NCBI GenBank assembly: GCA_031404455.1
Contig: JANNHP010000127.1
Location: forward strand, 1 to 56,330
Length of the DNA: 56,330 bases
Origin: Planctomycetia bacterium
GTDB taxonomy: Bacteria; Planctomycetota; JAJSAM01; JAJVHW01
Direction of reading: 5' to 3'
Positions 1,140-32,774 of this stretch are shown piece by piece. Under the pieces are notes generated by a model. That model was not told where the DNA came from. It saw only the letters and a program-made list of their open reading frames with translations, and did not search any database. The position numbers and the translations under genes were made by a program. Every line of letters starts with the position of its first letter. Within the stretch, counting starts at the first letter, position 1.

Positions 1140-1182
1140 AGAATGTACGAAGACGTTCGTAGTGTCAACGAAAATTTTCGTA
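1140..1182 (-). promoter_or_regulatory. blaI promoter with two palindromic operators
   Basis: Minus-strand TTGACA (1168-1163), 17 nt spacer, CATTCT (1145-1140). Palindromes TACGAA-GACG-TTCGTA (1146-1161) and AACGAAAATTTTCGTA (1167-1182), offset by 21 bp, flank the -35 box. Confidence 0.75.
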
Positions 1183-1224
1183 GGTCCTGGTGGACCGGAG
1201 GGTGGACCCACTATGTTCGGGTCC

Positions 1225-1305
1225 ATGATCCGCATCGCGACCTTCAACGTACTGTTCGGGCACCGGGAGACCGGCCCCAACTCGTGGTCCGAACGGCGGC
1301 CCCTC
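1225..1305 (+). pseudogene. N-terminal stub of an endonuclease/exonuclease/phosphatase (EEP) family gene
   Basis: MIRIATFNVLFGHRETGPNSWSERRPL matches the EEP N-terminal motif (R-x-A-T-F-N...N-x-W-x-x-R). It is preceded by TATGTT-N7-ATG. After ~1305 the frame is just ubiD antisense. Confidence 0.6.
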
Positions 1306-2430: not shown

Positions 2431-2455
2431 GCCGGGAGTGTAGGACGGCGGCCGG

Positions 2456-4351: not shown

Positions 4352-4457
4352 CGATCTCGACCGCCGCCCTTGCGCCGCGCGCAGCGCCGCGCTAGAAACG
4401 ATGCGCCGCCGGTCAAGGGGCACGACCGGCAGGGCGCGGACGGGAGGACGAACGACG

Positions 4458-6251: not shown

Positions 6252-8119
6252 GGAACGCCGACCGCCGCGCGCCCAAGCTCGTGCCCACTGTCGCGACCGT
6301 CCTCGTGACCGTGGCGATCTGCGGTTGCAAGGTGCAGCCCGTGGCCGACAACGCCATCGGTCCGCAGCAGGACCTCCGGGACGACGTCTCCGGCCGCGCT
6401 CCAGGCGGACCCGCCGAGAAGGCCGAGATCAAGTACCTGCCGCTCGGTTACGCGGCCGACGAGTCCGCGGCGCCGGGCGTGAAGCGTGCGGACCGTTACG
6501 AGGACGAGATCCCCGTGACCGACCGCTGGCGGATCGGGTTCCCCGCGTGGGAACGCGGGAGCAAGAGCGACTCTCCGTGGGACAAGGGCGCGCCGCTCGA
6601 TCCGTACCACCAGAACTTCTGGAAGGGCGACTACCCGATCCCCGGCACGCAGAACTGGTTCGTGAACGCCGAGTTCCAGTCGATCACGAAGCTCGAGTCG
6701 AAGAAGCTGCCCGTCCCCTCGGGCGTGTTCACGCGCAGTTCCGGCAAGGACGAGTTCTTCGGCAACGGCCACATCCGCACCGCCGAGGAGGTGGGCATCG
6801 TCTCCCTCGACATCACGCACGGCGAGACGTCGTTCAAGCCCGTGGACTTCCGCGTGTTCGTGAAGGGCGCCTTCTCGGCCAACTGGGCCGAGGCGAACGA
6901 GAACACGGTGCTCTACGCCGACCCGATGAGGGGTGCGACGCGGACCGACCGCCACGGAGCGCTCCAGCAGGCGTTCGTCGAGACGACGCTCGCGTCGGTC
7001 AGCGACAGGTACGACGTCGTCCAGCTCCGCGCCGGCACGCAGAAGTTCAACTCGGACTTCCGCGGCTTCATCTTCGAGGACGAGGCGCCCGGCGTGCGTG
7101 TCTTCGGCAACCTCGACGACAACCGCTGGCAGTGGAACCTCGCGTGGTTCGACCGTCTGGAGAAGGACACGAACAGCGGACTCAACACCTTCGACACGAT
7201 CGGCCAGCAGGTGCTCATTGCGAACCTCTACCGGCAGGACGCGCTGACCCTCGTCACTCCGCGGTGGAAGGAGACGACCTGGAACCAGGGCCTCACCTCG
7301 CAGCTCTCCTTCCACTACCTCAATTCCGATCCTTCGGTCCACTACGACGTGAACGACTTCCTCGTCCGCCCGCGTCTCATCGGGTCGCCCGAGCCGAACC
7401 AGGCCTCCGTGAGCTGGCTCGGCTGGTCGAACGACGGCCACATCGGGCGCGTCAACGTCAACGTCACGTCGTCCCTCTACGGCGCGTGGGGCGACCAGAG
7501 CTACGACGAGGTGGCCGGCCGCCGCCAGTCGGTCCGCGCGTCGCTCGCGGCGCTCGAGCTCTCGTACGACATCGACTGGATGCGCTTCCGGGTGCAGGGC
7601 CTCTGGCAGAGCGGCGACGACGACCCCGACGACGGCACCGCTGAGGGTTTCGACGGCATCTACGACAACGAGAACTTCGCGGGCGGCGAGTTCGGCTTCT
7701 GGAACCGCAACGCCATCGGGCTCTCGAGCACCGGCGTCGGTCTCGTGCAGGGCGGCAGCCTCTACAACACGCTGCGCAGCTCGAAGAACGAGGGGAGCCC
7801 GAGCTTCGTCAACCCCGGCCTCATCCTCCTCGGCGGCGGATGGGACGCGCAGCTCACGCCGCATCTCAAGCTCGTGACGAACGCGTCGTACCTGATGTTC
7901 GACAACACGTCGTCGCTCGAGTACGTGCTCGGCCAGGGCCGCATCGCCAAGGACATCGGCACCGACCTCTCCATCGGCGTCGTGTGGCGTCCGCTCCTGA
8001 CCGAGAACGTCATCGTCAAGGCAGGCGTCTCGTCCCTCATTCCCGGCGAGGGCTTCCGCGACATCTACGGCGCGGCCACGCTCTACGCCGTTTTCTCCGA
8101 GTTGATCCTCACATGGTGA
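6248..8119 (+). CDS. Predicted outer-membrane beta-barrel lipoprotein (uncharacterised)
   Basis: ATGA overlap with the upstream gene; signal ending AICGC; many amphipathic aromatic strands ([35 protein letters not shown]); C-terminal SELILTW. Confidence 0.75.
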
Positions 8120-11100
8120 AACGAGCCGTCGTCCTCGCTCTCTCCTCGCTCGCCGTCGCAGCACTGGTCGCCGCGTGCGCGCAGGCGGTGCCGACGGATT
8201 CCGCCGCACCGCCTCCCGGCTCGGTCTGGAAGAGCCACGCCGCGAACGAGTCTCCCGCGGTGGAATCGCTCATGGCGCAGACGCAGGCGGCGGCGTTCGC
8301 GAAGAGCAAGGGCTGCCTCACCTGCCACCAGGGCATCGAGAAGGAGCACGCGTCCGCCACCGTCGCCATCGGCTGCGTGGACTGCCACGGCGGCGACGCC
8401 GACGCGACCGCGAAGGAGCGGGCGCACGTGCTCCCCGCCGATCCGTCGATCGACGACACGTACGTCATGGACTGGCTCGACCACTCCTTCGAGTACGTGC
8501 GCTTCGTCAACCCGGGCGACCTGCGCGTCGTCGACACGACCTGCGGCGTCTGCCACCCGAACGAGGCCTACGCGACCAAGAAGAGCATGATGGCGCACGG
8601 CGCGATGCTCTGGGGCGCCGCCCTCTACAACAACGGCAGCTTCCCCATCAAGCGCCCGCAGTTCGGCGAGGCGTACGACGCCTACGGCCGCGCGGTGCGC
8701 GTCCAGACCGTGCCGCCGCCGACCGACGCGGACATCAAGCGCGGCGTCGTCCCGTACATGGATCCGCTGCCCCGCTACAACGTCTCGCAGATGGGCAACG
8801 TCCTGCGCACGTTCGAGCGCGGGGGCAAGCGCCCGCTCGAGCTCGGCAACCCGGACAAGGACGAGGACCCGGGTCTTCCCGCGCGGCGCCTCTCGCACCG
8901 CGGCCTCGGCACGCTCTTGCGCACCGACCCGGTCTTCCTCGGCCTGCAGAAGACGCGGCTCCTCGATCCGCTCCTCTGGATGCCCGGCTCGAACGACCAC
9001 CCAGGCGACTACCGCGCGAGCGGCTGCACGGCCTGCCACATGATCTACGCGAACGACCGCGATCCCGTCCACTCGGGGAGCTACGCGCAGTTCGGCAACC
9101 GCGGACGGTCGCGCTCCGGCGACCCGACGATCCCGAAGAACGAGGACGGCCACCCGATCAAGCACGAGCTGACACGCGCGATCCCGTCGTCCCAGTGCAT
9201 CGTCTGCCACATGCACCCGGGCACGAACATGGTCACCACGTACTACGGCGACATCTGGTACGACAACGAGACCGACTCGAACCTTCTCTTCGACGGGAAG
9301 GACCGGACGGACGCGGAGCGTCACGACATCCAGCAGGCGAACCCCGAGGGCTCGGCGCTGCGCGGCAAGTGGAGCGATCCGGACTTCCTCGCGGAGGTCT
9401 CGACGCTGAACCCGCAGATGAAGAACGCCCAGCTCTCCGACTACCACGGGCACGGCTGGCTCTACCGAAAGGTCTACAAGAAGGACAGGAAGGGCAACCT
9501 CCTCGACGCCGACGACAAGATCGTGGCGGCGGACGACCCGAAGAAGTTCGAGAAGGCCGTGCATCTCGCGGACATCCACGCGGAGCGCGGCATGCACTGC
9601 GTCGACTGCCACTTCACGCAGGACGCCCACGGCGACGGCCGCCTCTACCAGGAGCCGCGCGCCGCGACCGAGATCATGTGCATCGACTGCCACGGCACGG
9701 CCGGGAAGAAGGCCACCCTCGTGACGAGCGGCAACGCGGGCGGCAACGACCTCGCCGAGTCGAGGACGCCGTTCGGCAAGCGCTTCTTCCGCCGCGGCGG
9801 CGTGCTCTACCAGCGCTCCCAGCTCGACAAGGACGTCGTCTGGGCCGTGCCCGAGATCGTGGACTCGATCGACCCCGTGAATGCAGGCAGGAAGTTCGGC
9901 GGCGAGGGCATCCGCGAGCGGCCCGTCTACAACGAGAAGGCGCGCTACGCGAAGACGATGCACAAGGACGGCGCGACGTGGGGCAAAGTCCCGGCGGACC
10001 ACGCGGATCTCGCGCACGACCCGGGCAAGATGACGTGCCAGTCCTGCCACACCTCGTGGACGACCGCGTGCTTCGGCTGCCACCTGCCGATGTCGGCCAA
10101 CAACCGCAAGGAGATCCGCCACTTCGAGGGCGGCGTCTCGCGCAACTGGACGCAGTACAACTACCAGGTGCTTCGCGACGACGCGTACATGCTGGGAATC
10201 GACGGCTCGGTCACCGGCAACAGGATCAGTCCCGTCCGCTCCGCGTGCGCGGTCCTCGTCGGCTCGCAGAACCAGAACCGCGAGTGGCTCTACTCGCAGC
10301 AGCAGACGATCAGCGCCGAAGGCTTCTCGGGCCAGGCGTTCTCGACGTACGTGCCGCACACCGTCCGCACGCGCGAGACCAAGCAGTGCACCGATTGCCA
10401 CCTCTCGGAGTCGAACGACAACAACGCGTGGATGGCGCAACTCCTCCTCCACGGCACGAACTACGTCAATTTCATGGGCCGCTACGTGTACGTCGCCACC
10501 GGCGATGCGGGCTTCGAGGCCATCGCCGTGACCGAGCGCGAGGAGCCGCAGGCCGTGTACGGCTCGACGCTCCAGCGCGACGCCTTCCCCGATCGCCACA
10601 AGAAGTTCGTCGAGGGCGGACGCGCGCTCACCGAGGCGTACCACCACGGCGGCAAGGAGGCGCGCTCGCTCCAGCTCCGCGGCGAGTACTGCTACGTCGC
10701 CGAGGGCAAGGGCGGCCTCTACGTGTACGACGTGTCGAACGTCGACAACAAGGGCTTCAGCGAGCGGCTCACGACATCGCTCGTCTCGCCGCTCGGGCAG
10801 CGCTTCTACGTCAAGACGAAGGACGCGCGCGCCGTCGCGAGCCCGACGACGCTCGGCGTCGATCCGACGCGCCCGCAGCGACCCGAGAACGAGGAGCAGT
10901 CGATCCACCCGCTCTTCGCCTACCTCTACGTGGCCGACCGCGAGGAGGGCCTCGTCATGGTCCTCGCGGCGACGCTCCTCGACGGCGACCCGGCGAACAA
11001 CTTCCTCGACCGGACAATGGTCTTCAACCCCGATCACGTCCTCGACGGCGCCGAGACCGTCACCGTCGCGGGCAACTACGTCTACATGGGGACGAAGAAG

Positions 11101-11808
11101 GGACTCGTCATCCTCGACCTTTCCAAGATCACCCTCGCCGACCCGACGCCGCGTGTCGTGAAGGTGATGCCCGAGCTCCAGGGCGTGACGAGCGTGCAGG
11201 TGCAGTTCCGCTACGCGTTCGTCACCACGGCGAAGGGGCTCGAAGTCGTCGACATCACCGACATCGACCGCGCCACGGTCATTCCGGGGGCGCTCGTCCC
11301 GCTGAAAGAAGCGCACGACGTCTACGTGGCCCGCACGTACGCGTACGTCTCGGCCGGCGAGCAGGGCCTCGTGATCGTGGACGTGGAGAATCCCGAGAAA
11401 CCGAAGATCGACCAGACGTTCGACGCCGGCGGCGCGATGAACGACACGCGATGCTGCCGCGTCGCGATGACGAACGCGTCGCTCTTCGCCTACGTCGCCG
11501 ACGGGAAGAACGGCCTGCGCGTCGTCCAGCTCACGTCGCCCGAGACCGTCCCGCAGTTCAACGGCTTCAGCCCGCGCGTCAAGCCCGAGCTGATCGCCAC
11601 GTATCCCACGCACGCCCCCGCGCTGTCGCTCAGCAAGGCGCTCGACCGCGACCGCGCCGTCGACGAGAGCGGCAACCAGCTCTCCGTGTTCGGCAGGATC
11701 GGCGCGCGCCCGTTCAACCTCGAGGAACAGCGCCGCTTCTACGTGCGGGACGGAAAGCTCTTCCGCGTCACGGACGCGCCGAAGAACAGGCCGCTCGGCG
11801 GGAAGTAG
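8113..11808 (+). CDS. Decaheme c-type cytochrome lipoprotein fused to an LVIVD-repeat beta-propeller
   Basis: Lipobox LVAAC; 10 CxxCH (CLTCH, CVDCH, CGVCH, CTACH, CIVCH, CVDCH, CIDCH, CQSCH, CFGCH, CTDCH); about 7 LVIVD-type blades (e.g. [19 protein letters not shown]). Confidence 0.9.
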
Positions 11809-13005: not shown

Positions 13006-13034
13006 GTGAAGTTCCGCGCCTCGCGGAACTTCAC
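13006..13034 (-). terminator. 13-bp hairpin overlapping the stop of the 15-heme cytochrome gene
   Basis: GTGAAGTTCCGCG-cct-CGCGGAACTTCAC; no U-tract. Confidence 0.55.
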
Positions 13035-15100
13035 CGGTGGAACCGCTCCCGCACGTGGCACTTCACGCACGAGTCCTCGTCGAACGCGGGCCAGGCGACG
13101 TCGAGCACGCGCGTGGCGCGGTCGGCGTGCTCCTCTCGATGGCACCCGGCGCACTCGCTCTTCGCGTGGCCGGCGCTCGCGTGGTCGAACGGGCCGATCG
13201 CGGCGGCCGACTTCTTCAGCGCCTTCTCGGGGTTGAAGATGCCGGGTTCGTTGAACCGGAACTCGAGGCGTCCGTTGATCTCCCGGTTCTTGCCGGGCGC
13301 GCGGTCCACGTGGCAGAGGACGCACTTGCCCTCGCCCACGCTCTCGTGGCCGGTGTGGCACGCCTTGCAGTCCTTCGCGCCCTCGCGGAAGCCCATCGGC
13401 GCCTCGCCCGCCGCGGGCGTGTGGCACGAGAGACATCCCTTCGACAGCGTGTCGAGCGACGCGTAGCGCAGCGCACTCCGCGTGAGCGACGCCGAGTCGA
13501 GCGTGTGGACCTTGTGGAACATGTCGCCGACGCGGCGCGTGGCGCCCTCCTTCACCGGGACGGGCGTCGGCTCGGAGTCCACGTGGCACGTCGCGCAGAC
13601 GGCCGTGTTCACGAGCCTCGTGCCGGCGAGGGACGACGAACCCGCGACGTCCTCGTGGCACGCTTTGCAGTCCGCGGCGAGTGCCCGCTCGGCGCCGGGC
13701 GACGGCGAGACCGTGCGCAGGTGATGGTCGTGGCGGAAGACCTTCTCGCCGATCGGCGTGCGCTTGCCGGCCGACGACTTCTCGAGGACGTGGCACGCGA
13801 GGCACTCGTCCTTCTTGAAGTCGTGGTTCCGCGGCTTCAGGACCCACTTCGATTCGGTCGCGGGCAGTTCGACCGTCCTCAGGTCGGCCGTGATCTTCGA
13901 CGGGCTCTCGGCCTTCGCGTGGCACGCATAGCACGCGGCGCCTTCCTGGTCGCGGCCGTGAATGGCGACGCGCCAGTCGGCGTGGCACTCGAGGCACTTG
14001 TCGTAGGCGACGACCTCGAACTCGGCCGTCGCGATCACCGGGTTCACCGCGCCCTTCGCGAGCGGCTTGTGGCAGTCGGCGCAGGCGACGGGCACCTGTC
14101 CCTTCTGCGGCGGGCCGCCGGGCACGCCCGCGATGCCCCCCGTCCGCGCCACGCGGTGGTCGGCGTGCGAGAATCCGTCGATGAGGAGATGGCGCGCGAA
14201 CGGCGCGCCGCGCTCGTCGCGGAGGCGCGTCTTCGCGATCGCAACGACCTCGCCGGGAACGTCGCCCGACGGGTACGCAACCGTCAGCTCCTCGTGGCAG
14301 CCCGCGCAGGTCCGCGGCCAACCCATCGACGTCTTCCCCATCGGCGGCATGATGTCGGCATCCGCCCCGACGTGCTCCGCGTGGCACTCGTTGCACCTGA
14401 GCCCGGCGTTCAGCGCGTACGGGTGCGTCGCCGGCGCGTCGAAGCCCTTGTGGCACTCCGCGCACTTCGCGTTGTAGTCCGACGAGAGCGGCGCGTGGCA
14501 CGCGGCGCAGTCCTTCGGGCCGTCCCTGGCGCCGATCGCGTGGGCGTGATGGAGTTCGCCGCGCGTCATCGCCTCGGTGTCCTTCACGAACGGGAACGCC
14601 GCGAGGAGGAGGACGCCCGCCACCCCTGCGATCCAGTTCGCGCGGCGCAGATACGGCGTCTTGCCCCACCGGTGCTCCTGCGGCCCCGGATCGACGAGTG
14701 CGAACGGCCTCGAAGGCTTCGTCTTCATCACGATGCCGTCGACGACCTGCGGCAGGTACTGCTCGTTCGTCGTGAGCGTGCACTCGGCCTTCGCGGCGTC
14801 GATCGCGCACTCGACGAGCGAGTGGCCGACCTGCACCGTCGCGCCCGAGCGCAGCGATCCGCGGCCGTCCACGGGGTGGCCGTCCACGAACACGCCGGAG
14901 AGCTTGCCCTTCACCTCGAGTGCGAGATGCGCTCCGTCGAAGTGGAAGACGATCTCTTCCTGCGACACGAGACGGTCCGCGACGAACACGTCGGCCAAGG
15001 GGCGCGATCCGAGCACGACCTCGCCGCGGTCCACGATCCTGTCGGGCTTGTCCCGGTTGGCGCGGCCGCGCAGCTTGAACTTCAGGATGAAGCGGCTCAT
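13031..15100 (-). CDS. FHA-like domain, TM helix and 15-heme cytochrome c3-type protein
   Basis: ATG 15100 overlaps the upstream stop; FHA-like (VVLGSRPLADVFVADRLVS...SGVFVDG...LRSGATVQVG); TM WIAGVAGVLLLAAFPFV; 15 CxxCH with c3-type FSHADH/FRHDHH/FDHASAGH distal His motifs. Confidence 0.9.
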   Translation of the reverse strand: MSRFILKFKLRGRANRDKPDRIVDRGEVVLGSRPLADVFVADRLVSQEEIVFHFDGAHLALEVKGKLSGVFVDGHPVDGRGSLRSGATVQVGHSLVECAIDAAKAECTLTTNEQYLPQVVDGIVMKTKPSRPFALVDPGPQEHRWGKTPYLRRANWIAGVAGVLLLAAFPFVKDTEAMTRGELHHAHAIGARDGPKDCAACHAPLSSDYNAKCAECHKGFDAPATHPYALNAGLRCNECHAEHVGADADIMPPMGKTSMGWPRTCAGCHEELTVAYPSGDVPGEVVAIAKTRLRDERGAPFARHLLIDGFSHADHRVARTGGIAGVPGGPPQKGQVPVACADCHKPLAKGAVNPVIATAEFEVVAYDKCLECHADWRVAIHGRDQEGAACYACHAKAESPSKITADLRTVELPATESKWVLKPRNHDFKKDECLACHVLEKSSAGKRTPIGEKVFRHDHHLRTVSPSPGAERALAADCKACHEDVAGSSSLAGTRLVNTAVCATCHVDSEPTPVPVKEGATRRVGDMFHKVHTLDSASLTRSALRYASLDTLSKGCLSCHTPAAGEAPMGFREGAKDCKACHTGHESVGEGKCVLCHVDRAPGKNREINGRLEFRFNEPGIFNPEKALKKSAAAIGPFDHASAGHAKSECAGCHREEHADRATRVLDVAWPAFDEDSCVKCHVRERFHR

Positions 15101-17277
15101 TGCAGCAGTACCGACGGGTCGATGCGTTCGATCGCGCCGCACGGACAGTTGTAGATGCACGCCATGTCGCCGCGGCCCGCGCAGAGGTCGCACTTCACGG
15201 CCATGCGCAGGCGCTTCTTGCCGCCGTCGTCGGCGGGCTTCGCCGGCTCTTTCGTCGCGGCCTTCGCGGTGACGAGGTTCGAGAAGAACGGCAGCTTGCC
15301 GAGGAAGGTCGAGATCGGGCTCGCCTTCACCTCGAGCGTGCCGTCGCCCACGAGCGACTGCATGTGGATCGTGCCGTACGGGCACGCCGGCTCGCAGAGG
15401 GCGCACCCGGTGCAGGCCTCGGGGTCGATGTTCACGCGTCCGCGGCGGTCGCGGCGGATCGCGCCGAACTTGCACGCGAGCATGCAGTCCGGGACGCGGC
15501 AGTTGTAGCAACTGGACGTGAGCAGGAGGTCGCCGTACTGGATGCCGCGCTTGCCGATGCGCGGGATGCGGTCCTCGTGCGCCTCGATGCATCCTTCGAC
15601 GCACATGTTGCAGCGCGTGCACTTCGACATGTCGATGACGAGCGCCTCGCCCGCCTTCACCACCTCGTGCTCGGTCCCGATCTCGCGGGCGCGTATCCGC
15701 GCCTCCGACTCGTCGCCCGCGAGGAAGTCGTCGGCGTGGATCTTCCGGACGCGGTCGAGCACCGTCGCCTTCACCTCGGGGAACTGGTCGAGGAGCGAGA
15801 GGAACGGAGCCTTCGCGATCTTGACCATGTCCATGCGATCCACGGCGGCGACCGTCGAGCCGCGCGGCTTGTCCTCGAGCAGCGCCACCTCGCCGAAGAA
15901 CGAGTTCTCGCAGAGCCACGCGAGGATCTCTTCCCCGCGCGTGACCTTGGCGTGGCCGGTGCGGATGAGGAAGAAGGCGTCGCCCGGATCGCCCTCCTTC
16001 ACGATCGTCTCGCCCTTCTCGACGACGACGAGCTCCGCCACCTCGGAGATCCGCTTCAGCACCGACTCCTTGATGCCGCGGAAGATCGACACGGTGGAGA
16101 GGTGGTTCGCGAGGGCGCGCTCCCGATAGGCGACGTCGATCATCTTCTTGAAGCCGGCGCTCTTCTTGTCGCCGTAGATCTTGATGAACGTGTGGCGCGG
16201 CACCGAGAGCACGACGGCGTCGGACTCCGCGATCACCGTGGCGGCGCGCGGCGCGTTCGACATGCAGCTCATCTCGCCGAACCACGAGTTCACGGGCAGC
16301 GAGGCGAGGTACTTCTGCGCGTCGCCCGCCTGCTTGTAGACGCCGACCATGCCCTGCAGCACGACGTAGAAGTCGGCGGTGTACTCGCCCTCCTTGCAGA
16401 TGACGGCCTTCGGCGAGAGCACGCGGAACTCGCCCTCCTCGACGACGGACTTCCGCAGCGCGGGGCTGACCTCCTTGAAGATCGGGACCTGCGCGATGAG
16501 GAAGTCGGGCGAGTCCGGATCGACGGGCTCGGGCGGCGGCGCTGCCGCCGCGGGCTTCGCTGCCGCGCCGGGCACGGGGGGAACGCCGGGAGACTTCGGC
16601 GCGGCAGGCCCGCCCGGCGGTTTCGGCGCGGGAGGACCCGGCGGCTTCGGCGCCGCGGGCGCTCCGGGCGGCGACGGCGGTCGCGGCGCGGACGGAGGTG
16701 TCGGTCCCGCAGTAGGAGGCTTCGGCGCCCCTGGTGGTTTCGGAGCTCCGGGCGGCTTCGGCGGCGACGGCGCCGCCGGAGGTGCCGGAGTCGCAGCGGC
16801 GGAAGGAACCTCGGCCGGAGCGACGGGCGGCTTCGGAGCGACGGGCGGCTTCGGTGCGCCAGAAGGCATCGGGGGTCCCGGCGGCCTCGGCGGTCCGGGA
16901 GGCTTCGGGGCAGACGGAGGCTTCGGCGCGGACGGCGCTGCGGGAGCTGCGGCCGCGGGCGGTTGCGGCGCTCCGGGAGGCTTCGGCGGCGACGGCGCGG
17001 CGGACGGAGGTTTCGGTGGCGACGGCGGTTTCGGCGGCGCGGGCGGCCTGGGCGCGGAGAGCGGTGCGGGAGGAACGGTTGCGGCCGGCGCGGCGGGCGC
17101 AGAGGGCGCGGGCGGAACGACGATCGGACCCACCGCAATGGTGCGGTCCTCCGGCACGACGACCTCGTGCGTGTGGTCGCCCGAGGACTGGCCCTCGTCC
17201 GAGAGCGGCGGCGCGACGGGCAGCTCGTCGTCCGCGTGCTTCGGGCGGGTCTTGTCGTTCTCGTCGGAGGGGGTCAT
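15097..17277 (-). CDS. Pro-rich linker, two cyclic-nucleotide-binding domains and a 4x[4Fe-4S] DmsB/NrfC-type ferredoxin
   Basis: FGEMSCMSNAPRAAT and FGEVALLEDKPRGST phosphate-binding cassettes; CTRCNMCVEGC, CYNCRVPDCMLAC, CTGCALCEPAC, CDLC...CIYNCP (16 Cys); ~200 aa PKPP-repeat region. Confidence 0.9.
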   Translation of the reverse strand: MTPSDENDKTRPKHADDELPVAPPLSDEGQSSGDHTHEVVVPEDRTIAVGPIVVPPAPSAPAAPAATVPPAPLSAPRPPAPPKPPSPPKPPSAAPSPPKPPGAPQPPAAAAPAAPSAPKPPSAPKPPGPPRPPGPPMPSGAPKPPVAPKPPVAPAEVPSAAATPAPPAAPSPPKPPGAPKPPGAPKPPTAGPTPPSAPRPPSPPGAPAAPKPPGPPAPKPPGGPAAPKSPGVPPVPGAAAKPAAAAPPPEPVDPDSPDFLIAQVPIFKEVSPALRKSVVEEGEFRVLSPKAVICKEGEYTADFYVVLQGMVGVYKQAGDAQKYLASLPVNSWFGEMSCMSNAPRAATVIAESDAVVLSVPRHTFIKIYGDKKSAGFKKMIDVAYRERALANHLSTVSIFRGIKESVLKRISEVAELVVVEKGETIVKEGDPGDAFFLIRTGHAKVTRGEEILAWLCENSFFGEVALLEDKPRGSTVAAVDRMDMVKIAKAPFLSLLDQFPEVKATVLDRVRKIHADDFLAGDESEARIRAREIGTEHEVVKAGEALVIDMSKCTRCNMCVEGCIEAHEDRIPRIGKRGIQYGDLLLTSSCYNCRVPDCMLACKFGAIRRDRRGRVNIDPEACTGCALCEPACPYGTIHMQSLVGDGTLEVKASPISTFLGKLPFFSNLVTAKAATKEPAKPADDGGKKRLRMAVKCDLCAGRGDMACIYNCPCGAIERIDPSVLLQ

Positions 17278-17278: not shown

Positions 17279-18355
17279 TCAGTACCACAGCACTGCCCAG
17301 ACGTGCAGTGCGATGACGAAGAAGAGCGCCACGGACACCGGCACGTGGACCCAGCGCCAGAGACGCAGCCAGAAGTCGTAGCCGCGCGCGAGGGCAGTGT
17401 TCCACAGGAGGTTGTCGCGCGCGCCCGCCATCACGAGGAGATCGCGCGCGAGTTCCGCGTTCTGCGGGTCCGTCGTGGCGATGCGGCCCATGATCGCGGT
17501 CGCGCGCTCCGCGAGGTCGCGCGGCGACTTCGCGGGGACGAGGAGCGGCGCGAACTCCGCGCGCAGCTTCTCGTCGAGCGTGGCGATCACGCCCTCGATG
17601 CAGCTCTGGTGACTCTCGCGCGCGACACCCGCTTCCTCGTACGGGATGCCCACGTCCGCCTTCGCGAGCCGCGGGGGGATGACGCGGTAGAGCACGGCGC
17701 CGGCCACGCCGGTGACGAGCACGACCATCGAGAGGACGAAGAGAGCCCAGCCGATCGGGTGCCTGAGCACGAAGTCCGCGTGCAGCAGCACGCCGGCGCA
17801 AGCGACGGTGCCGACGCCCATGTGCATCTCGAGCCACGCCTCGAGCCGCCCGAACGGCTCCTTCTTCTTCAGTTCGACGAACTTCACCGCGCGGCCGGCG
17901 ACCTCGATCGTCCGCAGTTCCGCCCGCTGGACCCTCTGCGTCGCGTAGCGGACGAGGATCTCGTCGGCGGCCGCCTGGATCTCGGCGTCGTTCCCGAAGG
18001 CGCCCTTCCTGATCTTCGTGTTGAGGTCCTGGATCGACGCCCAGCTCGCATCGCCCGCGCCCGCGCCGGACCTTCCGAAGCGGCGGAAGTACTCGAGCTT
18101 GATCGACCACTTGCGCACGACGAAGAGCATCGTCGCGACGAAGAGCGCGAGGAGGACGTTGCCGGACCAGAGGTACCACGTGCGCTCCGCGCCGGGCGTC
18201 CCGCGGGCCGGGAGCGCGACGAACGCCCACGCGGCGCCCGCGACCACGCCCGTGCCGAGCAGCCAGAGCCACGTCCCCTTGCGCCCCATGAAGCGCACGA
18301 CGAACCGCCGGTTGAGGAGCGCCGGACCCTCGGACGGGATCGACTGGCTGGTCAT
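17279..18355 (-). CDS. Polytopic membrane protein, ferric-reductase/cytochrome b-like
   Basis: ATG 18355; 5-6 hydrophobic helices; two His pairs 13 residues apart (WLEMH...VLLH and WRWVH...IALH), the heme b ligation pattern. Confidence 0.72.
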   Translation of the reverse strand: MTSQSIPSEGPALLNRRFVVRFMGRKGTWLWLLGTGVVAGAAWAFVALPARGTPGAERTWYLWSGNVLLALFVATMLFVVRKWSIKLEYFRRFGRSGAGAGDASWASIQDLNTKIRKGAFGNDAEIQAAADEILVRYATQRVQRAELRTIEVAGRAVKFVELKKKEPFGRLEAWLEMHMGVGTVACAGVLLHADFVLRHPIGWALFVLSMVVLVTGVAGAVLYRVIPPRLAKADVGIPYEEAGVARESHQSCIEGVIATLDEKLRAEFAPLLVPAKSPRDLAERATAIMGRIATTDPQNAELARDLLVMAGARDNLLWNTALARGYDFWLRLWRWVHVPVSVALFFVIALHVWAVLWY

Positions 18356-20451
18356 CGGCCCGAGAGGCTCCGCAGGTACCCGCGCGGTTCGTTGCGGTGG
18401 CACGTGGCGCAGGTGCGTCCTCGCGCGTCGACGCCCGCCTTCGCGATCGCCGGGTCGTTGAACCACTCCTTCGCGAACTTCGGGTCGTCGTGGATCGACA
18501 GACGGACCGACGCCTTCGTGATGCGCTCCTCGTACGGCGCGTCCGCCGCGCCGTCGCGCACGTGGCACGCCGCGCAGTCGCCGCCCTTGTCGTGGTGCTG
18601 CACCCCCGCGCCGAGCTCGAGGTGCGATCGCGCGATCGTCTCCCGCGGCGGCGACTCCACGCGGCCGTTCGCGTCGCCGCGGACCTTGTCGTGGCAGAAG
18701 AGGCACTTCGTCGAGTCGCCCTGCGAGATCTTCGGTCCGGTGCGCGCGACCTTCGCGGCGTCGCCCTCGTGCGCGTGGCACTTCGAGCAGTCGAGGACGT
18801 CGGCGGGCGTCGTGTACCCGAACTTCCCGCCCGCCGAGTGGCACTGCGTGCACGCCATGCCCTTCCCGTCCGCGGTGAGGGAGGCGGCGCGCACGTGGCC
18901 GCCGTGGTCGAACTGCACCGCCTTGCGCGCGACGAGCGGCGTCGAGAGTCCGAGCTCCGCCGCGGTCGCGCCCGCGTGGCAGTCGAGGCAGCCGCGCGCC
19001 GACGCGGCGGCGCCCGTCGGGACCGGAGCGCGTTCGATGTGCGCGTCGAAGCGTGCGAGGTCCTCGCTGCGGCGCGACGTCGCCGACGTCGTGTGGCAGA
19101 CGAGGCAGCTCTCGGTCGTCGGGTTCGCGGGGAGGTGCGGGTCGTGCGCGAACGGACGTCCCGTGAGGCGCGAGGTGAGAGCGTCGCCTCCGGCGATGTG
19201 GCAGTCCGAGCAGGCCTTCGCTTCGCCGCCGACCGCTTGCGTCGGATCGGCGAGACGTGCGCCCGCCGCGGCGACGCCCGGGTGACGGTGCAGGGAGAAC
19301 TTCGAATCGCCGACGGTCGCGCGCGACACCTCCGCCTTCGCGATCGCGAGCTTGCCCTTCTCGTCCACGCCGCCGTCGTGGCACTTGAAGCACGCCCACT
19401 GGCCGATGCCGTGGTCCTTCACGGCCCACGACGGCTTCTCCGGCGCCCACCCGTCGTGACCGTGGCAGGCGTCGCACGCCGCGTAGTCGACGAGTTGTTC
19501 GCGGCCGACGGGCTCCGGCGACGCGACACGCTTCGGGAAGAGCGTGCGTCCGTGCTCGTCGCTCTCGGGGTAGTGGCAGGTCGCGCACTTCATGCGCGTG
19601 AACTCGCCGAGGTGCTTCGAGTGCGGGAACTTGTCGAAGTCGATGCGCGTGATGGTCGTCGCCTTCGCGGCGACCGCGACGAGCGGCTTGCCGGCCGCGT
19701 CGACGTGGCATCCGGCGCACTTCCCCGCCGTGGCGCCCGCGGGGTCGTAGTCCCAGATCGTCTTGCTGGCTCTCACCGCGTCGTGGCACGCCATGCAGTC
19801 GGCCGAGGCACCGCCGTGGTCCGCATGGAGGAACGCGCGCGCCGTCGTCGCCGGCCGCGCGCCCGGGCGGTACTTCACGGGCTCGATCGACGCGTCCTTC
19901 ATGTGGCACTTCGCGCACGCGAGTCCGTCGCCCGTGCGCTCGTCCTGCTTCACGACGCCGCCCGCGGGCTCGTGCGCCGCGTGGCAGTCGGCGCACGTCT
20001 TCTCGCTCGCCCTGGTTCCCGGCCGCGACTTCGGCCCGAGCCCCGAGGTCGGCACCGAGTACTCGATCCAGTCGCCGTCCACGCGCGGCGCGTGGCACGA
20101 GAAGCAGGCGACGTCCGGGAGCCGCGCGCCGTCCTTCGCGAACAGGTGCTCCTTGTGCTGGAACGCCGGACGGGTGTAGGCGCCCGTCATCTTCTTCTCG
20201 AGGTGCGTCGCGTCCACGTGGCACGCGTCGCAGCCCGCGAAGTGCGCCTCGCGCTCGCCCTTCGAGTAGTCGTGGCACGCGCGGCAGTCGGCGTCCGAGC
20301 CGCCGCCCGCTGCCGAGATCGTGGCCGTGGAGAGGTGCGGCCGGTGCGGGAAGCTGAACGGCCCCGACCCGGACGACGGCAGCGCGACGGCGAACGCGAC
20401 CGCGAGCGCCACGGCGCCGATCGCGATCCGCCGGACGCCCGCCGTCGTCAC
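18352..20451 (-). CDS. Exported 18-heme cytochrome c3-type protein
   Basis: GTG 20451 (GTGA overlap); signal RRIAIGAVALAVAFAVALP; 18 CxxCH; FPHRPH/FQHKEH/FLHADH/FPHSKH/FAHDPH/FDHGGH motifs. Confidence 0.9.
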   Translation of the reverse strand: MTTAGVRRIAIGAVALAVAFAVALPSSGSGPFSFPHRPHLSTATISAAGGGSDADCRACHDYSKGEREAHFAGCDACHVDATHLEKKMTGAYTRPAFQHKEHLFAKDGARLPDVACFSCHAPRVDGDWIEYSVPTSGLGPKSRPGTRASEKTCADCHAAHEPAGGVVKQDERTGDGLACAKCHMKDASIEPVKYRPGARPATTARAFLHADHGGASADCMACHDAVRASKTIWDYDPAGATAGKCAGCHVDAAGKPLVAVAAKATTITRIDFDKFPHSKHLGEFTRMKCATCHYPESDEHGRTLFPKRVASPEPVGREQLVDYAACDACHGHDGWAPEKPSWAVKDHGIGQWACFKCHDGGVDEKGKLAIAKAEVSRATVGDSKFSLHRHPGVAAAGARLADPTQAVGGEAKACSDCHIAGGDALTSRLTGRPFAHDPHLPANPTTESCLVCHTTSATSRRSEDLARFDAHIERAPVPTGAAASARGCLDCHAGATAAELGLSTPLVARKAVQFDHGGHVRAASLTADGKGMACTQCHSAGGKFGYTTPADVLDCSKCHAHEGDAAKVARTGPKISQGDSTKCLFCHDKVRGDANGRVESPPRETIARSHLELGAGVQHHDKGGDCAACHVRDGAADAPYEERITKASVRLSIHDDPKFAKEWFNDPAIAKAGVDARGRTCATCHRNEPRGYLRSLSGR

Positions 20452-21467
20452 CTCTTCAGCAGGAAGAACGCCGCGACGGCGGCGATACCAAGGGTCACGA
20501 CGACGATCCCGACGACCTTCGAGAGGCTCGTCCCCCCCTTCGCCGCGAGCGGCGCGAGCGTGCCGATGATCTGCCGCTGGCGGTAGATCTCCGACCACTC
20601 CTTGGGCCCCATGATCCCGCGCTCGACGAAGAGCTGGCCGAGCGACGCGCCCGACTTCCTGTGCTCGGCGAGGACCTCGCGCGCCTGCTGCTGGGTCGCC
20701 TTGCCGAGACGCGCCGCGTGGTCGCAGAGCGCCTCGGCGTAGACGTCCTGCGAGCCGCCCGACCCGGACTCCGCCGACTTCGCGACGAAGAGGCAGTCCA
20801 CGGTGCCGAAGGTGATGGCCTGGTCGCCCGAGACGGGCGTCGCCACGACGAGCGGGTTGCCGTCCACGAACGTGCCGTTGCTGGACTTCATGTCCTCGAC
20901 GACGAAGCGCCCGTTCTCGAAGCGGATCTTCGCGTGCCGCGACGAGATCGACTGGTGCGGCACGACGATCTGCGCCTGCTTCGCGTCGCGCCCGATCACG
21001 ACCTCCATCTCATCGATCGCGACGACGCGCTTGTCGTGCTCGGCGGCGATCACGAGCTTCGGCTGCGCCGCCTTGAAGCGCGCCACGTTGACGAGGATGC
21101 TCTGCATCGCCCCGCCGCCGATCGCGACCGTCTTCTCCGTCGACGCGAAGCCCGGCGCCGACGACTCGCGCGCCGTGTCGAGGATCTCGATGATCGCGGG
21201 CCCCACCTTCAGCTTCTGTCCGGGAACGAGCGGCGTCTCCACGTTCGCCGCGAGCTTCGGGCCGCCGTCGATCGAGCTTCCGTTGGTCGAACCTAGATCG
21301 GCCACCATCACCCGGTCGCCGTCGGGGCGCACGCGCAGGTGTTTCGAGGACACCTCGGTGTCGGCGATGACGATGTCCGCGGGCGGCTTGCGCCCGATCG
21401 TCAGGTCGCGGTCAAGGTCACGCTCCTCCTGGACCGCTCCTCGCAACGTGACCCGCAGCTTCTGCAT
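20448..21467 (-). CDS. Tandem-FHA protein with C-terminal membrane anchor
   Basis: Two canonical FHA domains (TIGRK...VSSKH...LGSTNGS; VIGRD...ISSRHA...KSSNGTF); C-terminal VVGIVVVTLGIAAVAAFFLLKR. ATG 21467 follows CACAAT-N7; alternative start 21476. Confidence 0.87.
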   Translation of the reverse strand: MQKLRVTLRGAVQEERDLDRDLTIGRKPPADIVIADTEVSSKHLRVRPDGDRVMVADLGSTNGSSIDGGPKLAANVETPLVPGQKLKVGPAIIEILDTARESSAPGFASTEKTVAIGGGAMQSILVNVARFKAAQPKLVIAAEHDKRVVAIDEMEVVIGRDAKQAQIVVPHQSISSRHAKIRFENGRFVVEDMKSSNGTFVDGNPLVVATPVSGDQAITFGTVDCLFVAKSAESGSGGSQDVYAEALCDHAARLGKATQQQAREVLAEHRKSGASLGQLFVERGIMGPKEWSEIYRQRQIIGTLAPLAAKGGTSLSKVVGIVVVTLGIAAVAAFFLLKR

Positions 21468-21520
21468 CGCGATCATTGTGGGCAGGTGCGGCGAGAAGCG
21501 GCAAGGCGAAAAGCGAAACG

Positions 21521-23485
21521 ATGTCGGCGTCGGCGTATCCTGCCGCGCGAGTGGGCAAGGCCAAGCTGACCCTGACGGGAGTCGGACCCGAGCCGACGGT
21601 GCTCGATCTCGCGGGCGAAGCCATCGTCGGGCGGTCGATCAAGGCCCAGATCCAGATCGACGGCGACCTCGTCTCGCGCCAGCACGCGCGGTTCTACGAA
21701 GAGGACGGCCGCTGGTACGTCGAGGACCTCGCGAGCAGGAACGGGACCCTGCTGAACGGCGAGAAGGTGAAGACGGCGCTGCTCAAGTCCGGCGACGTCG
21801 TGATGATCGGCTACGGGCGGATCGTGTTCGAGGAGGAGCACCGGGAGAGCAGCTCCTTCGACGTGAGCATCGTGGAGGGGCCCGTCGTCGATTCGCGCTC
21901 GTCGGTGGTCGTCGCCGACGACGAGCCCGACTCGCACAGCGCCACGATGGCCCTCTCGTACAAGGACCTCGTGATGGTCAACCAGCGCATCAGCACGATC
22001 GTGCGCGTCGGCCACCGCATCGCGAACCTCCTCGACCGGAACGAGCTCCTGCGCGAGGTGATGGAGACCTTCTTCGAGCTCTACCCGCAGGCCGACCGCG
22101 GCTGCGTCGTGCTGAAGGACTCGAACGACGTCTTCCGGCTCGCGACGACCTACCAGCGCCAGGGACTCGCCGCGACGACGTCGGTCGTGAACATCTCCAC
22201 GTCGCTGATCGAACTCGTGCGCCGCGAGAAGAAGGCCGTGCTCTCCGCCGACACGCTCCACGACAAGCGGTTCGAGGGCCGCGACTCGATCGTAGGGCAG
22301 GCGAGCCGGTCGATCATGGTGGCGCCGCTGCAGCGCAACGACGAGTTCTTCGGCGTGATCTACCTCGACACGGAGACGCTCGCGCGGCCCTTCAACTCGG
22401 ACGACCTCAACCTGCTCCAGGGCGTCGCGGGTCCGGTGTCGATCGCTCTGAAGAACGCGGAGCTCGTGACGAGCATCGAGAACGAGGCGCGGATGCGCAC
22501 CAGCCTCTCGCGCTACCTCTCGCCCGACGTCGTGCAGCAGATCGAGGCGGGGACCTTGAAGCCCAACCTCGGCGGCGACCAGGCCGAGGGCACCGTGATG
22601 TTCAGCGACATCGTGGGCTTCACCGCGATGGCGGAGCGCCTCGCGCCGACGGCCGTCGTCGAGCGGCTGAACAGCTACTTCACTCAGATGCTCGAAGCGA
22701 TCTTCGGCTGGGGCGGGACGGTCGACAAGTTCGGCGGCGATGCGATCCTCGCCGTCTGGGGCGCGCCGCTGCCCTCCGCGGAGCACGGCATCGGCGCGGT
22801 CGGCGGATCGCTCGAGATGCACGCGCGGCTCTTCCAGCTCAACCTCGCGCTCGAGGAAGCGGGCGACACGCGCATCCGCATGGCGCTCGGCCTGAACTCG
22901 GGCCGCTTCGTCGCGGGCAACATCGGCGGCGCCGAGCGCATGGAGTGGACCGTGATCGGCGACGCCGTGAACCTCGCCCAGCGTGTCGAGGCCCAGGGCT
23001 TCCCCGGTTGCGTTCTCGTGTCGGAGTCGACGTTCACCCAGATCCCGGCGGCCGGCGCGTACGGGTTCGCGCCCGTCCACGTGAAGAACCGCAAGGAGCC
23101 GGTGAAGATCTACTCCGTGCGCGTCGCGAAGACGCCGCGCGGCGGGATCGCGGCGATCCCGGGTTCCTTGAAGCTCTCCACGGGCTCCGTGGACGCGCTG
23201 ATCGTCCGCGCGTCCCAGACGAAGGAAGGCCGGCAGAAGGCGACGATCTACTTCGCCGGCACGTCGGCGATGGGCGAGGTCGTGGAGTTCACCGCGGCGA
23301 TGCCCGAGAGCCCCGCCGCGGTGACGCTGCGCGGCAAGGTCGTGTCCGGGAGCCCGCTGCTCGAGTGCCGCACCGGACGGAGCGCCGACGTCGAGGTGGA
23401 GACGTCGTCCCCCGAGATGGCGCGCCTGCTCGCGATGGGCGGCGCGGTCGACGCCCCCGTGGCCCTCGAGAAGATCGAGAGATAG
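21521..23485 (+). CDS. FHA-GAF-class III adenylate cyclase
   Basis: FHA (VGRS...VSRQHA...ASRNGT); GAF (RSIMVAPL...GVIYLD...FNSDDLNLL); cyclase FSDIVGFT, DKFGGDA, WTVIGDAVNLAQR. The Lys/Thr pair indicates ATP specificity. Confidence 0.92.
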   Translation: MSASAYPAARVGKAKLTLTGVGPEPTVLDLAGEAIVGRSIKAQIQIDGDLVSRQHARFYEEDGRWYVEDLASRNGTLLNGEKVKTALLKSGDVVMIGYGRIVFEEEHRESSSFDVSIVEGPVVDSRSSVVVADDEPDSHSATMALSYKDLVMVNQRISTIVRVGHRIANLLDRNELLREVMETFFELYPQADRGCVVLKDSNDVFRLATTYQRQGLAATTSVVNISTSLIELVRREKKAVLSADTLHDKRFEGRDSIVGQASRSIMVAPLQRNDEFFGVIYLDTETLARPFNSDDLNLLQGVAGPVSIALKNAELVTSIENEARMRTSLSRYLSPDVVQQIEAGTLKPNLGGDQAEGTVMFSDIVGFTAMAERLAPTAVVERLNSYFTQMLEAIFGWGGTVDKFGGDAILAVWGAPLPSAEHGIGAVGGSLEMHARLFQLNLALEEAGDTRIRMALGLNSGRFVAGNIGGAERMEWTVIGDAVNLAQRVEAQGFPGCVLVSESTFTQIPAAGAYGFAPVHVKNRKEPVKIYSVRVAKTPRGGIAAIPGSLKLSTGSVDALIVRASQTKEGRQKATIYFAGTSAMGEVVEFTAAMPESPAAVTLRGKVVSGSPLLECRTGRSADVEVETSSPEMARLLAMGGAVDAPVALEKIER

Positions 23486-23494: not shown

Positions 23495-24253
23495 ATGCGG
23501 ATACGCGTGCTCGGATGCAGCGGCGGCAGCGCGCCCGGACGGGAACCGTCCTGCTACCTGCTCGAGCGCGGCGTCGCTGTCGATGCCGGCGCCCTCGCGT
23601 CCGCGCTCACGATCGACGAGCAGAACGAGATCGGGCACGTGTTCCTCACGCACGCCCACTGGGATCACTGCCGCGACCTGCCGCTGCACGTCATCAATCG
23701 CCGGCCCGAGGCGCCGACGCTGCGCGTCCACTCGATCGAGGAGACGATCCGGTCGCTGCGCACCCACCTCATGAACGACGACGTCTGGTTCCGCGCGTTC
23801 GACCTCCCCTCGGCGGACACGCCGTTCGTCTCGGCGGAGCCGATCGCGCACGGTCAGACCGTCGAGGTCGAGGGCTACCGCGTCACCGCGATGTCGGTGC
23901 CCCACACCGTGCCCGCGGTGAGCTACCACATCGACGACGGGCACGTGTCGGTCGTCATCTCCGCGGACACCGGCGGCGGCGGCGTCTTCCGCGCGGTCCC
24001 GGAAGGTGCCAGCCCGCTGAAGGCCGTGTTCCTCGAGGCCTCGTTCCCGAACCACATGAAGGACTTCGCGGTGATGACCGGCCACCTGACGCCGGAGATG
24101 CTCGCCGAGGAGTGCGCGGGGCTCGCCGACGACGTGGCGGTGCTCGTCACCCACATGAAGCCCGGGTTCGAGACCGTGCTCATGCAGGAGATCGCCGACA
24201 TCGGCCGCCACGGCGTCCGGCCGTGCCGGGACGGCGACGTGTTCGACTTCTGA
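23495..24253 (+). CDS. 3',5'-cyclic-nucleotide phosphodiesterase, class II / metallo-beta-lactamase fold
   Basis: MRIRVLGCSGG...AVDAG...FLTHAHWDH...PHTVP...SADTG...EASFPN...GHLTP...THMKP; lies 9 bp after the cyclase. Confidence 0.85.
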   Translation: MRIRVLGCSGGSAPGREPSCYLLERGVAVDAGALASALTIDEQNEIGHVFLTHAHWDHCRDLPLHVINRRPEAPTLRVHSIEETIRSLRTHLMNDDVWFRAFDLPSADTPFVSAEPIAHGQTVEVEGYRVTAMSVPHTVPAVSYHIDDGHVSVVISADTGGGGVFRAVPEGASPLKAVFLEASFPNHMKDFAVMTGHLTPEMLAEECAGLADDVAVLVTHMKPGFETVLMQEIADIGRHGVRPCRDGDVFDF

Positions 24254-25354: not shown

Positions 25355-25503
25355 ATGGATCCGGCCAGGGAACTGGCCAAGCGGGTTGGATGCTCGAGTG
25401 TTGCGGCGAGCGGAAGGAGGCGTGGCGCCCGGCGGGTGTCGCCGGGGATGGGTAGAACGGTCCGCGGACAGGGGCGCCCGTGCCGGTCCGCCGAGGTGCC
25501 GCG

Positions 25504-27159: not shown

Positions 27160-27163
27160 CGAC

Positions 27164-30810: not shown

Positions 30811-30922
30811 GATTCGGGAACCGGCCCGCTCGGCGCGGACTGCCCGTCCGCGATCTCTCGGACGGTCTGCGGTGCGCCGCTAGGATCCTCGAATCGACTT
30901 TCGCCTACCCTTCGAGGTCCCC

Positions 30923-32764: not shown

Positions 32765-32774
32765 GAGTCCCCCG

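Follow-up and report, generated by a model that had tools for sequence, protein, structure and literature searches.

The contig JANNHP010000127.1 of a Planctomycetia bacterium (assembly GCA_031404455.1), all 56,330 nucleotides of which are called the window here, was analysed around a gene, D, that encodes two cyclic nucleotide-binding (CNB) domains joined to a four-cluster iron-sulphur (Fe-S) ferredoxin domain in one polypeptide. D occupies 15097..17277 on the minus strand as an open reading frame (ORF) of 726 amino acids (aa), composed from the N- to the C-terminus of a Pro-rich region, CNB-A, CNB-B and the Fe-S domain. A frame plot of GC content at third codon positions (GC3) revealed that D belongs to five consecutive minus-strand genes, A to E. 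Three of the four junctions are coupled: the stop codon of B overlaps the ATG of C as ATGA, the ATG of D lies 1 nt past the stop codon of C, and the stop codon of D is shared with the ATG of E in another ATGA overlap. The A/B junction is uncertain because the start of B is uncertain.

Our protein search found 263 relatives of D at E ≤ 0.001. Among the 120 of these that were listed, 118 contain PF00027 together with Fer4 families and 4 have an extra FHA domain. A scan of species genomes showed that 107 of them encode a D relative, and from these genomes 80 related loci were kept, 73 of which belong to named Planctomycetota lineages. The counts given below for loci refer to this set unless stated otherwise.

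The sequence-only reading of this DNA had placed the fusion at 15097-16520. That span does cover both CNB domains and the Fe-S domain (residue ~252 to the stop codon), but it omits a Pro-rich N-terminal extension of ~254 aa, since the ORF extends to 17277. The extension (16516..17277, minus strand) is built from PPKPPGAP-like repeats, and the DNA behind it is a series of degenerate 18-nt units. The close relatives L001, L002, L003, L005, L006 and L009 have counterparts of it, 115-334 aa long and 40-46% Pro, and the start codons of these six homologues lie 0-9 nt past the stop codon of C. A gene-caller's version of D, P0002, has only 492 residues. Its start would leave ~700 nt empty inside a coupled operon, and it is also disfavoured by the six close loci, in each of which the early start codon is followed by a Pro-rich region. 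Because the start position and the Pro-rich region recur in this way, P0002 is probably too short. In L007, an FHA domain and a linker (L007:9140-10006) stand in place of the Pro-rich extension. The N-terminal region of the D family looks like an exchangeable protein-interaction module, because such a replacement has occurred in some relatives. An FHA domain with a linker likewise replaces the Pro-rich N-terminus in P0021, P0023, P0081 and P0111. A hydropathy scan of D found neither a transmembrane nor a signal segment, and no twin-arginine motif was visible in the N-terminus on direct reading, in agreement with the earlier statement that the protein has no signal peptide.

Pfam analysis identified cNMP_binding (PF00027) in two stretches of D (E = 7.6e-37; 125.6 bits against a cut-off of 27.5). 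CNB-A (approximately aa 262-380; 16138..16494, minus strand) and CNB-B (approximately aa 395-510; 15748..16095, minus strand) both align with the CNB domains of PKG. In the AlphaFold2 model of D, the predicted local distance difference test (pLDDT) is 77.3 overall and ~90 across the CNB domains, including CNB-A. The phosphate-binding cassettes are FGEMSCMSNAPRAAT in CNB-A (16237-16281, minus strand) and FGEVALLEDKPRGST in CNB-B (15853-15897, minus strand). They match the FGE...R(S/T)AT cassettes of PKG residue for residue, and their Gly-Glu and Pro-Arg-x-(A/S)-T are exactly those of PKA and PKG. Functional roles in the cassette are known for Gly-Glu and Arg-x-Ala/Ser-Thr. That both domains keep an FGE...PR cassette had been claimed from the letters of the sequence, and the alignment with the PKG cassettes bears this out.

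The first matches of the family profile and of the AlphaFold2 model were tandem CNB proteins, namely the PKA regulatory subunit (PKA-R) and PKG. Profile matches to PKA-R and PKG chains extended over both of their CNB domains, with E as low as 5e-45, and Foldseek matched D to Bcy1 (3of1) at E = 6.4e-21. The arrangement previously likened to a PKA regulatory subunit is thus found again, but the 3of1 match has a TM-score (TMq) of only 0.26 and a root mean square deviation of 9.5 Å. Because these TM-scores are low, the Foldseek match does not settle the relative orientation of the two CNB domains of D. No kinase inhibitor site and no dimerisation/docking domain was identified in D, whose N-terminus is the Pro-rich repeat. 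The ten Pfam families listed for D are all CNB or Fer4 families. A helix-turn-helix (HTH) family is not among them and the C-terminus is the Fe-S domain, which confirms that D lacks the HTH of CRP-type regulators.

The four-cluster ferredoxin domain lies at approximately aa 546-726 (15100..15642, minus strand) and is supported by Fer4 families and by matches in the Protein Data Bank (PDB). Nine Fer4 families were found, all in the C-terminal part, and among these PF13247 (Fer4_11) passed its cut-off at 28.2 bits against 26.2. Its 16 Cys are arranged in four motifs, CxxCxxCxxxC, CxxCx4CxxxC, CxxCxxCxxxC and CxxCx7CxxxC, which are invariant in all 31 aligned relatives and kept in 79 of the 80 related loci; the full set of 16 Cys noted before is confirmed. 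In one of the loci, L009 (10001-11436), the D homologue loses its frame past Cys motif II, and the database copy, P0026, contains only PF00027. A frameshift in the gene or a misassembly of that 654-kb contig could account for this.

Between Cys motifs III and IV, the alignment of relatives revealed an insert of ~60 aa (15193..15381, minus strand), which falls in a low-confidence region of the AlphaFold2 model. It contains a conserved FLxx(I/L)P motif, the Pro of which is invariant, followed by a charged linker, and it might serve as a docking element. The Fe-S domain aligns end to end, motif for motif, with HycB3/HycB4 of 7qv7 (E = 4e-10). Its other PDB matches, likewise aligned over the full length, were HycB (7z0s_B), PsrB (2vpw_B) and ArrB (6cz7_B; profile E = 2e-20). 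The DmsB equivalog model (TIGR02951) gave 38.1 bits against a cut-off of 214.1, and the NrfC model (TIGR03149) was absent from the 25 best NCBIfam models shown for D, of 52 matched. None of the five proteins A to E scored above the cut-off of any NCBIfam model. The label "DmsB/NrfC-type" is thus right as far as the four-cluster superfamily is concerned, as the PF13247 match indicates, but the nearest relatives are cytoplasmic proteins of the HycB type and PsrB/ArrB. On these comparisons, D is not an orthologue of DmsB, NrfC, CRP or PKA-R.

Directly upstream of D, gene C (17279..18355, minus strand) encodes a protein of 358 aa with five transmembrane helices in the transmembrane scan and two large helical inserts (AlphaFold2 pLDDT 89.8). 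Both inserts would face the cytoplasm according to the positive-inside rule. H178 and H192 are in one transmembrane helix and H337 and H351 in the last one, so that each pair forms an H-x13-H motif. All four His are invariant in 36 of 36 homologues and are also present in the distant P0123, P0239 and P0262. The bis-His haem ligands in cytochrome b are likewise spaced H-x13-H. A profile search with C against 1.84 billion representatives found 3432 relatives at E ≤ 0.001, of which 1181 were at E ≤ 1e-10, while the Atlas search returned only unnamed clusters. We scanned 14 relatives from the profile search with Pfam. One of them, P0239 (profile match E = 3.4e-24), scored 33.8 bits with PF01292, "prokaryotic cytochrome b561", and so passed its cut-off of 30.1. 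A further four matched PF01292 below the cut-off, and one had weak DUF4405 and Ferric_reduct matches. From the motifs and the homology passed through P0239, C is best read as a very divergent dihaem cytochrome b.

The other three genes of the operon encode two multihaem cytochromes c and an FHA protein. A (20448..21476, minus strand) has two FHA stretches (PF00498, E = 9.7e-31) and a C-terminal transmembrane anchor at aa 321-339. Between its second FHA domain and the anchor, aa 258-296 (20589-20705, minus strand) resemble the MshE-related cyclic di-GMP motif NF053729 below threshold (21.6 bits against 38, E = 1.4e-4), which, if real, would be a third nucleotide input. B (18352..~20475, minus strand; start uncertain) is a multihaem cytochrome c of the periplasm, in which 18 CxxCH motifs follow a hydrophobic segment at the N-terminus. 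E (13031..15100, minus strand) combines an N-terminal FHA domain, backed by matches to the FHA domain of GarA (E = 3.6e-5), with a transmembrane segment (aa 154-172) and a multihaem cytochrome c part of 15 CxxCH.

Two genes of nucleotide signalling are divergent from A. F (21476..23485, plus strand; start uncertain) was identified from its ORF and Pfam matches as an FHA-GAF-class III nucleotide cyclase, with PF00211 at 69.7 bits against 21.9 for the catalytic domain. When aligned with CyaB (3r5g) and Cya2 (2w01), it shows the Lys in vdKfgGD and the Thr in wTviG, and the metal-binding Asp, the Asn and the Arg residues are also present in the CyaB alignment. The Lys/Thr pair is that of the adenylate-cyclase type, by the specificity rule that we assume here. 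Beside F, G (23495..24253, plus strand) has a metallo-beta-lactamase fold and resembles class-II phosphodiesterases of cyclic AMP (cAMP), with PF02112 (PDEase_II) at 38.8 bits against 23.7 and also PF12706. On the other side of the operon and convergent with it, J (7645..11808, plus strand; start uncertain) encodes a very large protein in which LVIVD beta-propeller repeats accompany 10 CxxCH motifs. A homologue of J was found by tblastn within 10 kb of the module in 27 of the 80 loci, and J might also belong to the electron chain. About 15 kb from the module, at 30884-33833 (plus strand), POR_N, POR and TPP_enzyme_C matches mark the alpha and beta subunits of a 2-oxoacid:ferredoxin oxidoreductase, which could be a source of reduced ferredoxin.

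The sequence-only reading had also stated that no molybdopterin or hydrogenase partner is present in the window. Our searches agree: PF00384 (molybdopterin) had no match on the contig, with three places elsewhere in the genome, and PF00374 (NiFe hydrogenase) had none in the genome, which is 89.6% complete. That picture of the partners was incomplete, however, since multihaem cytochromes, a four-His membrane protein and FHA proteins all lie in the window.

This gene set is widely shared. In a sample of the phylum, 88 of 401 genomes matched at E ≤ 1e-30, partial matches counted, and all seven other genomes of the window's own family did so. The tblastn searches over the 80 loci found E in 74 of them, B in 64, A in 63 and C in 59. 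Most of the loci keep A-(B)-C-D-E in that order and on the same strand, and a minority have B elsewhere or on the opposite strand. By all-against-all blastp clustering, C was present in 73 of the 80 loci and multihaem cytochromes in all 80. The loci without partners are mostly short contigs that start at D. Clusters of multihaem cytochromes and C were the only widely shared neighbour clusters, and no molybdopterin family was found among the 14 neighbour ORFs that were scanned. A distant D variant (25% identity) is encoded in G070, a complete single-contig genome of 7.4 Mb, where the order is FHA-cyclase / cytochrome c - D-like - C-like - cytochrome c. The D-like protein has the 16 Cys and a cassette Arg in CNB-A only, and the C-like protein has both His pairs.

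Natural fusions link the same parts in single polypeptides. In P0262 (1110 aa, from a metagenome-assembled genome of Magnetococcus), Pyr_redox_2/3 is followed by two CNB domains with canonical cassettes, the four Cys motifs and, last, a C-like domain that has the two His pairs. Its CNB-Fe-S part has 29% identity to D (E = 1.4e-46). In P0256, a C-like domain is fused to a multihaem cytochrome c. P0262 belongs to a sister family of flavoprotein-CNB-Fe-S proteins with at least 2468 members at E ≤ 1e-10 among 8000 scored. Most of these have ~796 residues and no membrane domain. Their named sources, mostly iron-oxidising Gallionellaceae, include Gallionella, Sideroxydans, Rhodocyclaceae and Magnetococcales. 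Among 120 listed members, 116 have two canonical cassettes and all 120 have the four Cys motifs. One member, P0276 (1458 aa), has four canonical CNB cassettes, apparently by internal duplication of the CNB-containing part. No NCBIfam model was above its cut-off for P0278, P0262, P0239 or P0122.

Of 80 metagenome loci examined for the flavoprotein-CNB-Fe-S family, 46 have a C-like ORF directly downstream, and in four of these 46 (L106, L112, L127 and L157) the frame holding it overlaps the matched gene. The remaining 34 loci have no C-like ORF; 21 of them, which are Gallionella-like, were checked (L091-L103, L124, L128, L137-L141 and L159), and none has a hydrophobic H-x13-H pair just downstream. 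The sister family thus does not always have the membrane partner, judging from these 21 loci. In 13 of the 80 planctomycete loci, a reductase gene of FHA, FAD_binding_6, NAD_binding_1 and Fer2 domains was found near the module (L023:5792-7660; L025, L026, L033, L036, L038, L043, L051, L064, L074, L075, L076 and L079), and its product is a possible cytoplasmic donor. In combination, the fusions, the downstream C-like ORFs and the nearby reductases independently support a partnership between the CNB-Fe-S module and the four-His membrane protein. The same arrangements indicate that flavoproteins linked to NAD(P)H can feed the CNB-Fe-S module.

Taken together, we lean towards reading D as the Fe-S subunit, cytoplasmic and responsive to cAMP, of a conduit that carries electrons across the membrane. 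According to this reading, electrons would pass through the four [4Fe-4S] clusters of the C-terminal domain of D to two b haems held by the four His of C, and from there to the periplasmic cytochromes B (18 haems) and E (15 haems), possibly also to J. The flavoproteins fused or adjacent to the module in relatives suggest, by analogy, a flow from the cytoplasm to the periplasm. The PKA-R-like CNB tandem ahead of the Fe-S domain, both cassettes of which are canonical in this clade, would be the regulatory input, and a seemingly dedicated FHA-GAF-cyclase of the adenylate-cyclase type and a cAMP phosphodiesterase-like protein are encoded next to it. Binding of cAMP may alter the presentation of the Fe-S domain to C or to a cytoplasmic redox partner and thus gate electron flow; we propose such gating because a canonical CNB tandem fronts the Fe-S domain and the cyclase and phosphodiesterase genes adjoin it. 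The FHA domains on A, E and the cyclase could provide a second input through phospho-threonine. Domain content, intact motifs, operon structure, synteny and the natural fusions are observed; binding of haem b by C, the contact of D with C, cAMP as ligand, any gating and the direction of flow are inferred. A fuller version, in which the module is a signal-gated respiratory wire of four clusters, two b and ~33 c haems, switched post-translationally by cAMP and phospho-threonine, and the sister family is its NAD(P)H-driven version, is put forward tentatively, as a possibility that falls short of probable.

Prediction of a complex of C, two haems and residues 22-492 of D gave a score of 0.60 (0.59, 0.60 and 0.67 in the runs), while the best of three controls scored 0.00. 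At least 53% of contacts are common to the runs, and the partner pLDDT is 66 or higher. The mark used for such predictions was reached by 116 of 157 solved complexes and by 2 of 215 mismatched pairs, counts that are rough owing to author-made alignments and riding haems, and scores of 0.60 or below were obtained by only 18 of those 157 plus both mismatches that passed. The prediction thus gives weak support to a contact between C and D.

Several observations weigh against a cAMP-gated conduit, and the weakness of this modelled support is one of them. The Fe-S part of the AlphaFold2 model is of low confidence (pLDDT 40-78). Haem binding by C would follow from its motifs and the homology mediated by P0239, with no direct match: C has no Pfam, NCBIfam or NrfD match, Foldseek against the PDB found nothing at E ≤ 0.001, a PDB profile search found nothing below E = 0.08, and VIA-align returned only generic helical hairpins (Z ≤ 9.4, with 64-90 residues aligned in most top rows). 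On the cytoplasmic side, no electron donor or acceptor is encoded in the window. In the organism's own genome, which is 89.6% complete, the flavin domain of P0262 had no match and the FHA-FNR-Fer2 reductase of L023 gave only FHA-domain matches.

The absence of a cytoplasmic redox enzyme from the window and from what was found in the genome would suit a different role, in which the module is a redox sensor instead of a conduit. The haems and clusters would then report the periplasmic or extracellular redox state, and D would be a signalling node without metabolic flux. Reduction of the clusters might affect the CNB tandem, altering for instance how tightly it binds cAMP or whether it associates with FHA proteins, so that D would buffer or relay cAMP and phospho-threonine signals. 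Signalling domains are indeed dense at the locus: FHA domains occur on A (two), E and the cyclase, a GAF domain on the cyclase, and a phosphodiesterase-like gene is present. FHA is also fused to D in 4 of the 120 listed homologues and in L007. However, 33 c-type haems, two putative b haems and four clusters would be a large investment for a sensor, and the relatives that are fused to, or lie beside, NAD(P)H flavoproteins point to real electron throughput. We therefore regard the sensor as unlikely, if worth keeping in view.

Further observations against the conduit as proposed concern its regulation by cAMP. The cassette Arg of CNB-A is kept in just 16 of the 78 scorable loci and missing from the other 62, and that of CNB-B is kept in 10 of the 80 and missing from 70, with Trp in most of them. 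Only 9 of the 78 scorable loci (L001-L007, L009 and L010) keep both, in addition to the window. Among the 120 listed database matches of D, 25 have two canonical cassettes, 26 one and 69 none. A full-length cyclase neighbour is present in the window, in five of the nine loci with both Arg, and in one of the 71 others (L067). The link between cyclase and cassettes fails in L006, L007 and L010, which have no cyclase within the flank, and L067 has a cyclase without the cassette Arg. Because the nine loci form one clade, this link amounts to little more than one evolutionary observation, close to a single event; the G070 variant appears to be a second, distant observation of a cyclase association. 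Since most members of the family have lost the cassette Arg, its conserved core of Fe-S domain, cytochrome b, cytochromes c and FHA domains does not require canonical binding of cyclic nucleoside monophosphates (cNMP), and cNMP control may not be a general property of the family.

These losses would also fit CNB domains that bind no cyclic nucleotide in D either, and instead form a structural or dimerisation scaffold or bind another small molecule, while the cyclase acts on other targets. The Fe-S domain, C and the cytochromes are fully conserved in spite of the losses, and other CNB-containing ORFs are present in the genome and could be targets of the cyclase. Against this, both cassettes of D keep the PKA/PKG residues exactly, adjacent genes for the cyclase and the phosphodiesterase occur in the window and also in five close loci, and the sister family retains both cassettes in nearly all of its listed proteins (116/120). 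We consider it rather improbable for D itself, and cAMP control is plausible in this clade and in the proteobacterial sister family. The earlier proposal of a cAMP switch on electron flow rather than on transcription accordingly gains from the canonical cassettes, the missing HTH, the cyclase and phosphodiesterase beside the operon and the electron-transfer neighbours, but with both cassette Arg kept in so few loci it may not extend to the whole family.

That D might be an ordinary DmsB/NrfC-type beta subunit of a molybdenum oxidoreductase or hydrogenase encoded elsewhere can be set aside as very improbable, for PF13247 is passed narrowly and PF00384 has its three places on other contigs (C462, C133 and C72), but the 56-kb contig has no molybdopterin gene, the neighbours shared across the 80 loci are cytochromes and C with no molybdopterin family among the 14 scanned, D has no Tat signal, the equivalog models such as DmsB fall far under their cut-offs, and the fusions pair the module with a b-type membrane domain and not with a molybdenum subunit.

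Compared with known systems, all parts of the module belong to known superfamilies, and what stands out is their combination, a signalling-domain-bearing module of Fe-S protein, cytochrome b and multihaem cytochromes. D resembles PKA-R and PKG in its two consecutive CNB domains with canonical FGE...R(A/S/T)AT cassettes, and these were its best profile and fold matches. It differs from them in having no kinase partner, inhibitor site or docking domain and in carrying an Fe-S domain in cis, and most of its relatives lack the cassette Arg. With HycB/HydN, PsrB, ArrB, DmsB and NrfC it shares the 16 Cys in four motifs, but unlike this group it has no molybdenum or NiFe partner and no Tat signal, and has the FLxxLP insert between motifs III and IV and the N-terminal CNB tandem. 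CRP/FNR proteins share the CNB fold, and CRP models matched D below threshold; D has two CNB domains and an Fe-S domain instead of a C-terminal HTH.

The proposed pair of D and C is similar to NarH-NarI and FdnH-FdnI, in which a four-cluster protein sits on a membrane protein with two His pairs spanning the bilayer; PF01292, which is matched by relatives of C, we take to include FdnI and HyaC. The differences are that D-C has no catalytic subunit, that C has five transmembrane helices with two cytoplasmic inserts, and that the cytochromes c are periplasmic and multihaem. The Cbc-type complexes of Geobacter and the Hmc/Tmc-type complexes of Desulfovibrio combine a b-type subunit in the membrane with multihaem cytochromes c and with an Fe-S protein that is either cytoplasmic or peripheral. 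Our module is like these in its parts and has sub-threshold matches to HmcA and HmcB models, with no equivalog cut-off reached, but it has no NrfD-like or CCG-domain subunits, and CNB and FHA signalling is built in. The Pyr_redox-CNB-CNB-Fer4 proteins of the sister family have a homologous CNB-CNB-four-cluster module, with the C-like partner downstream or fused; in contrast to D, they begin with an FAD/NAD(P)H oxidoreductase domain and nearly always keep both cassettes. Database names for D and the sister family are automatic only, such as "cyclic nucleotide-binding domain-containing protein". In full-text searches of the literature outside subscription journals, we found no description of a CNB-four-cluster ferredoxin fusion, of this operon or of a flavoprotein-CNB-Fer4 family.

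Cyclic nucleotides in bacteria are known mainly to act on transcription, through CRP, and on a small number of enzymes and channels. A second messenger that directly controls an electron-transfer chain would, if true, be a new layer of respiratory regulation. If the module is indeed a signal-gated wire, the export of electrons to periplasmic or extracellular acceptors could be opened or closed in seconds with no change in transcription. Because the module and its sister family are common, they could bear on how electron flow to such partners is controlled in uncultured bacteria of aquatic habitats and sediments. The natural fusions put the hypothesis within one testable polypeptide. Apart from any regulation, our analysis defines a large family of four-His membrane proteins, with 3432 representative clusters, to which C belongs without a Pfam or NCBIfam match of its own.

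Other genes were also identified in the window. At 1165-2616 (minus strand), a UbiD-family decarboxylase is encoded near a 694-aa frame (4167-6251, plus strand) with a C-terminal HbpS-like haem-degrading domain. At 25456-29722 (plus strand), a gene for an N6/N4 DNA methylase precedes one for a ResIII/DEAD helicase-type protein, and the two look like a type III restriction-modification pair. A frame of 1152 aa at 42918-46376 (plus strand) contains N-terminal ECF sigma-70 regions 2 and 4, six CarboxypepD_reg repeats and Big_1, and either a fusion or a long frame running through two genes may explain it.

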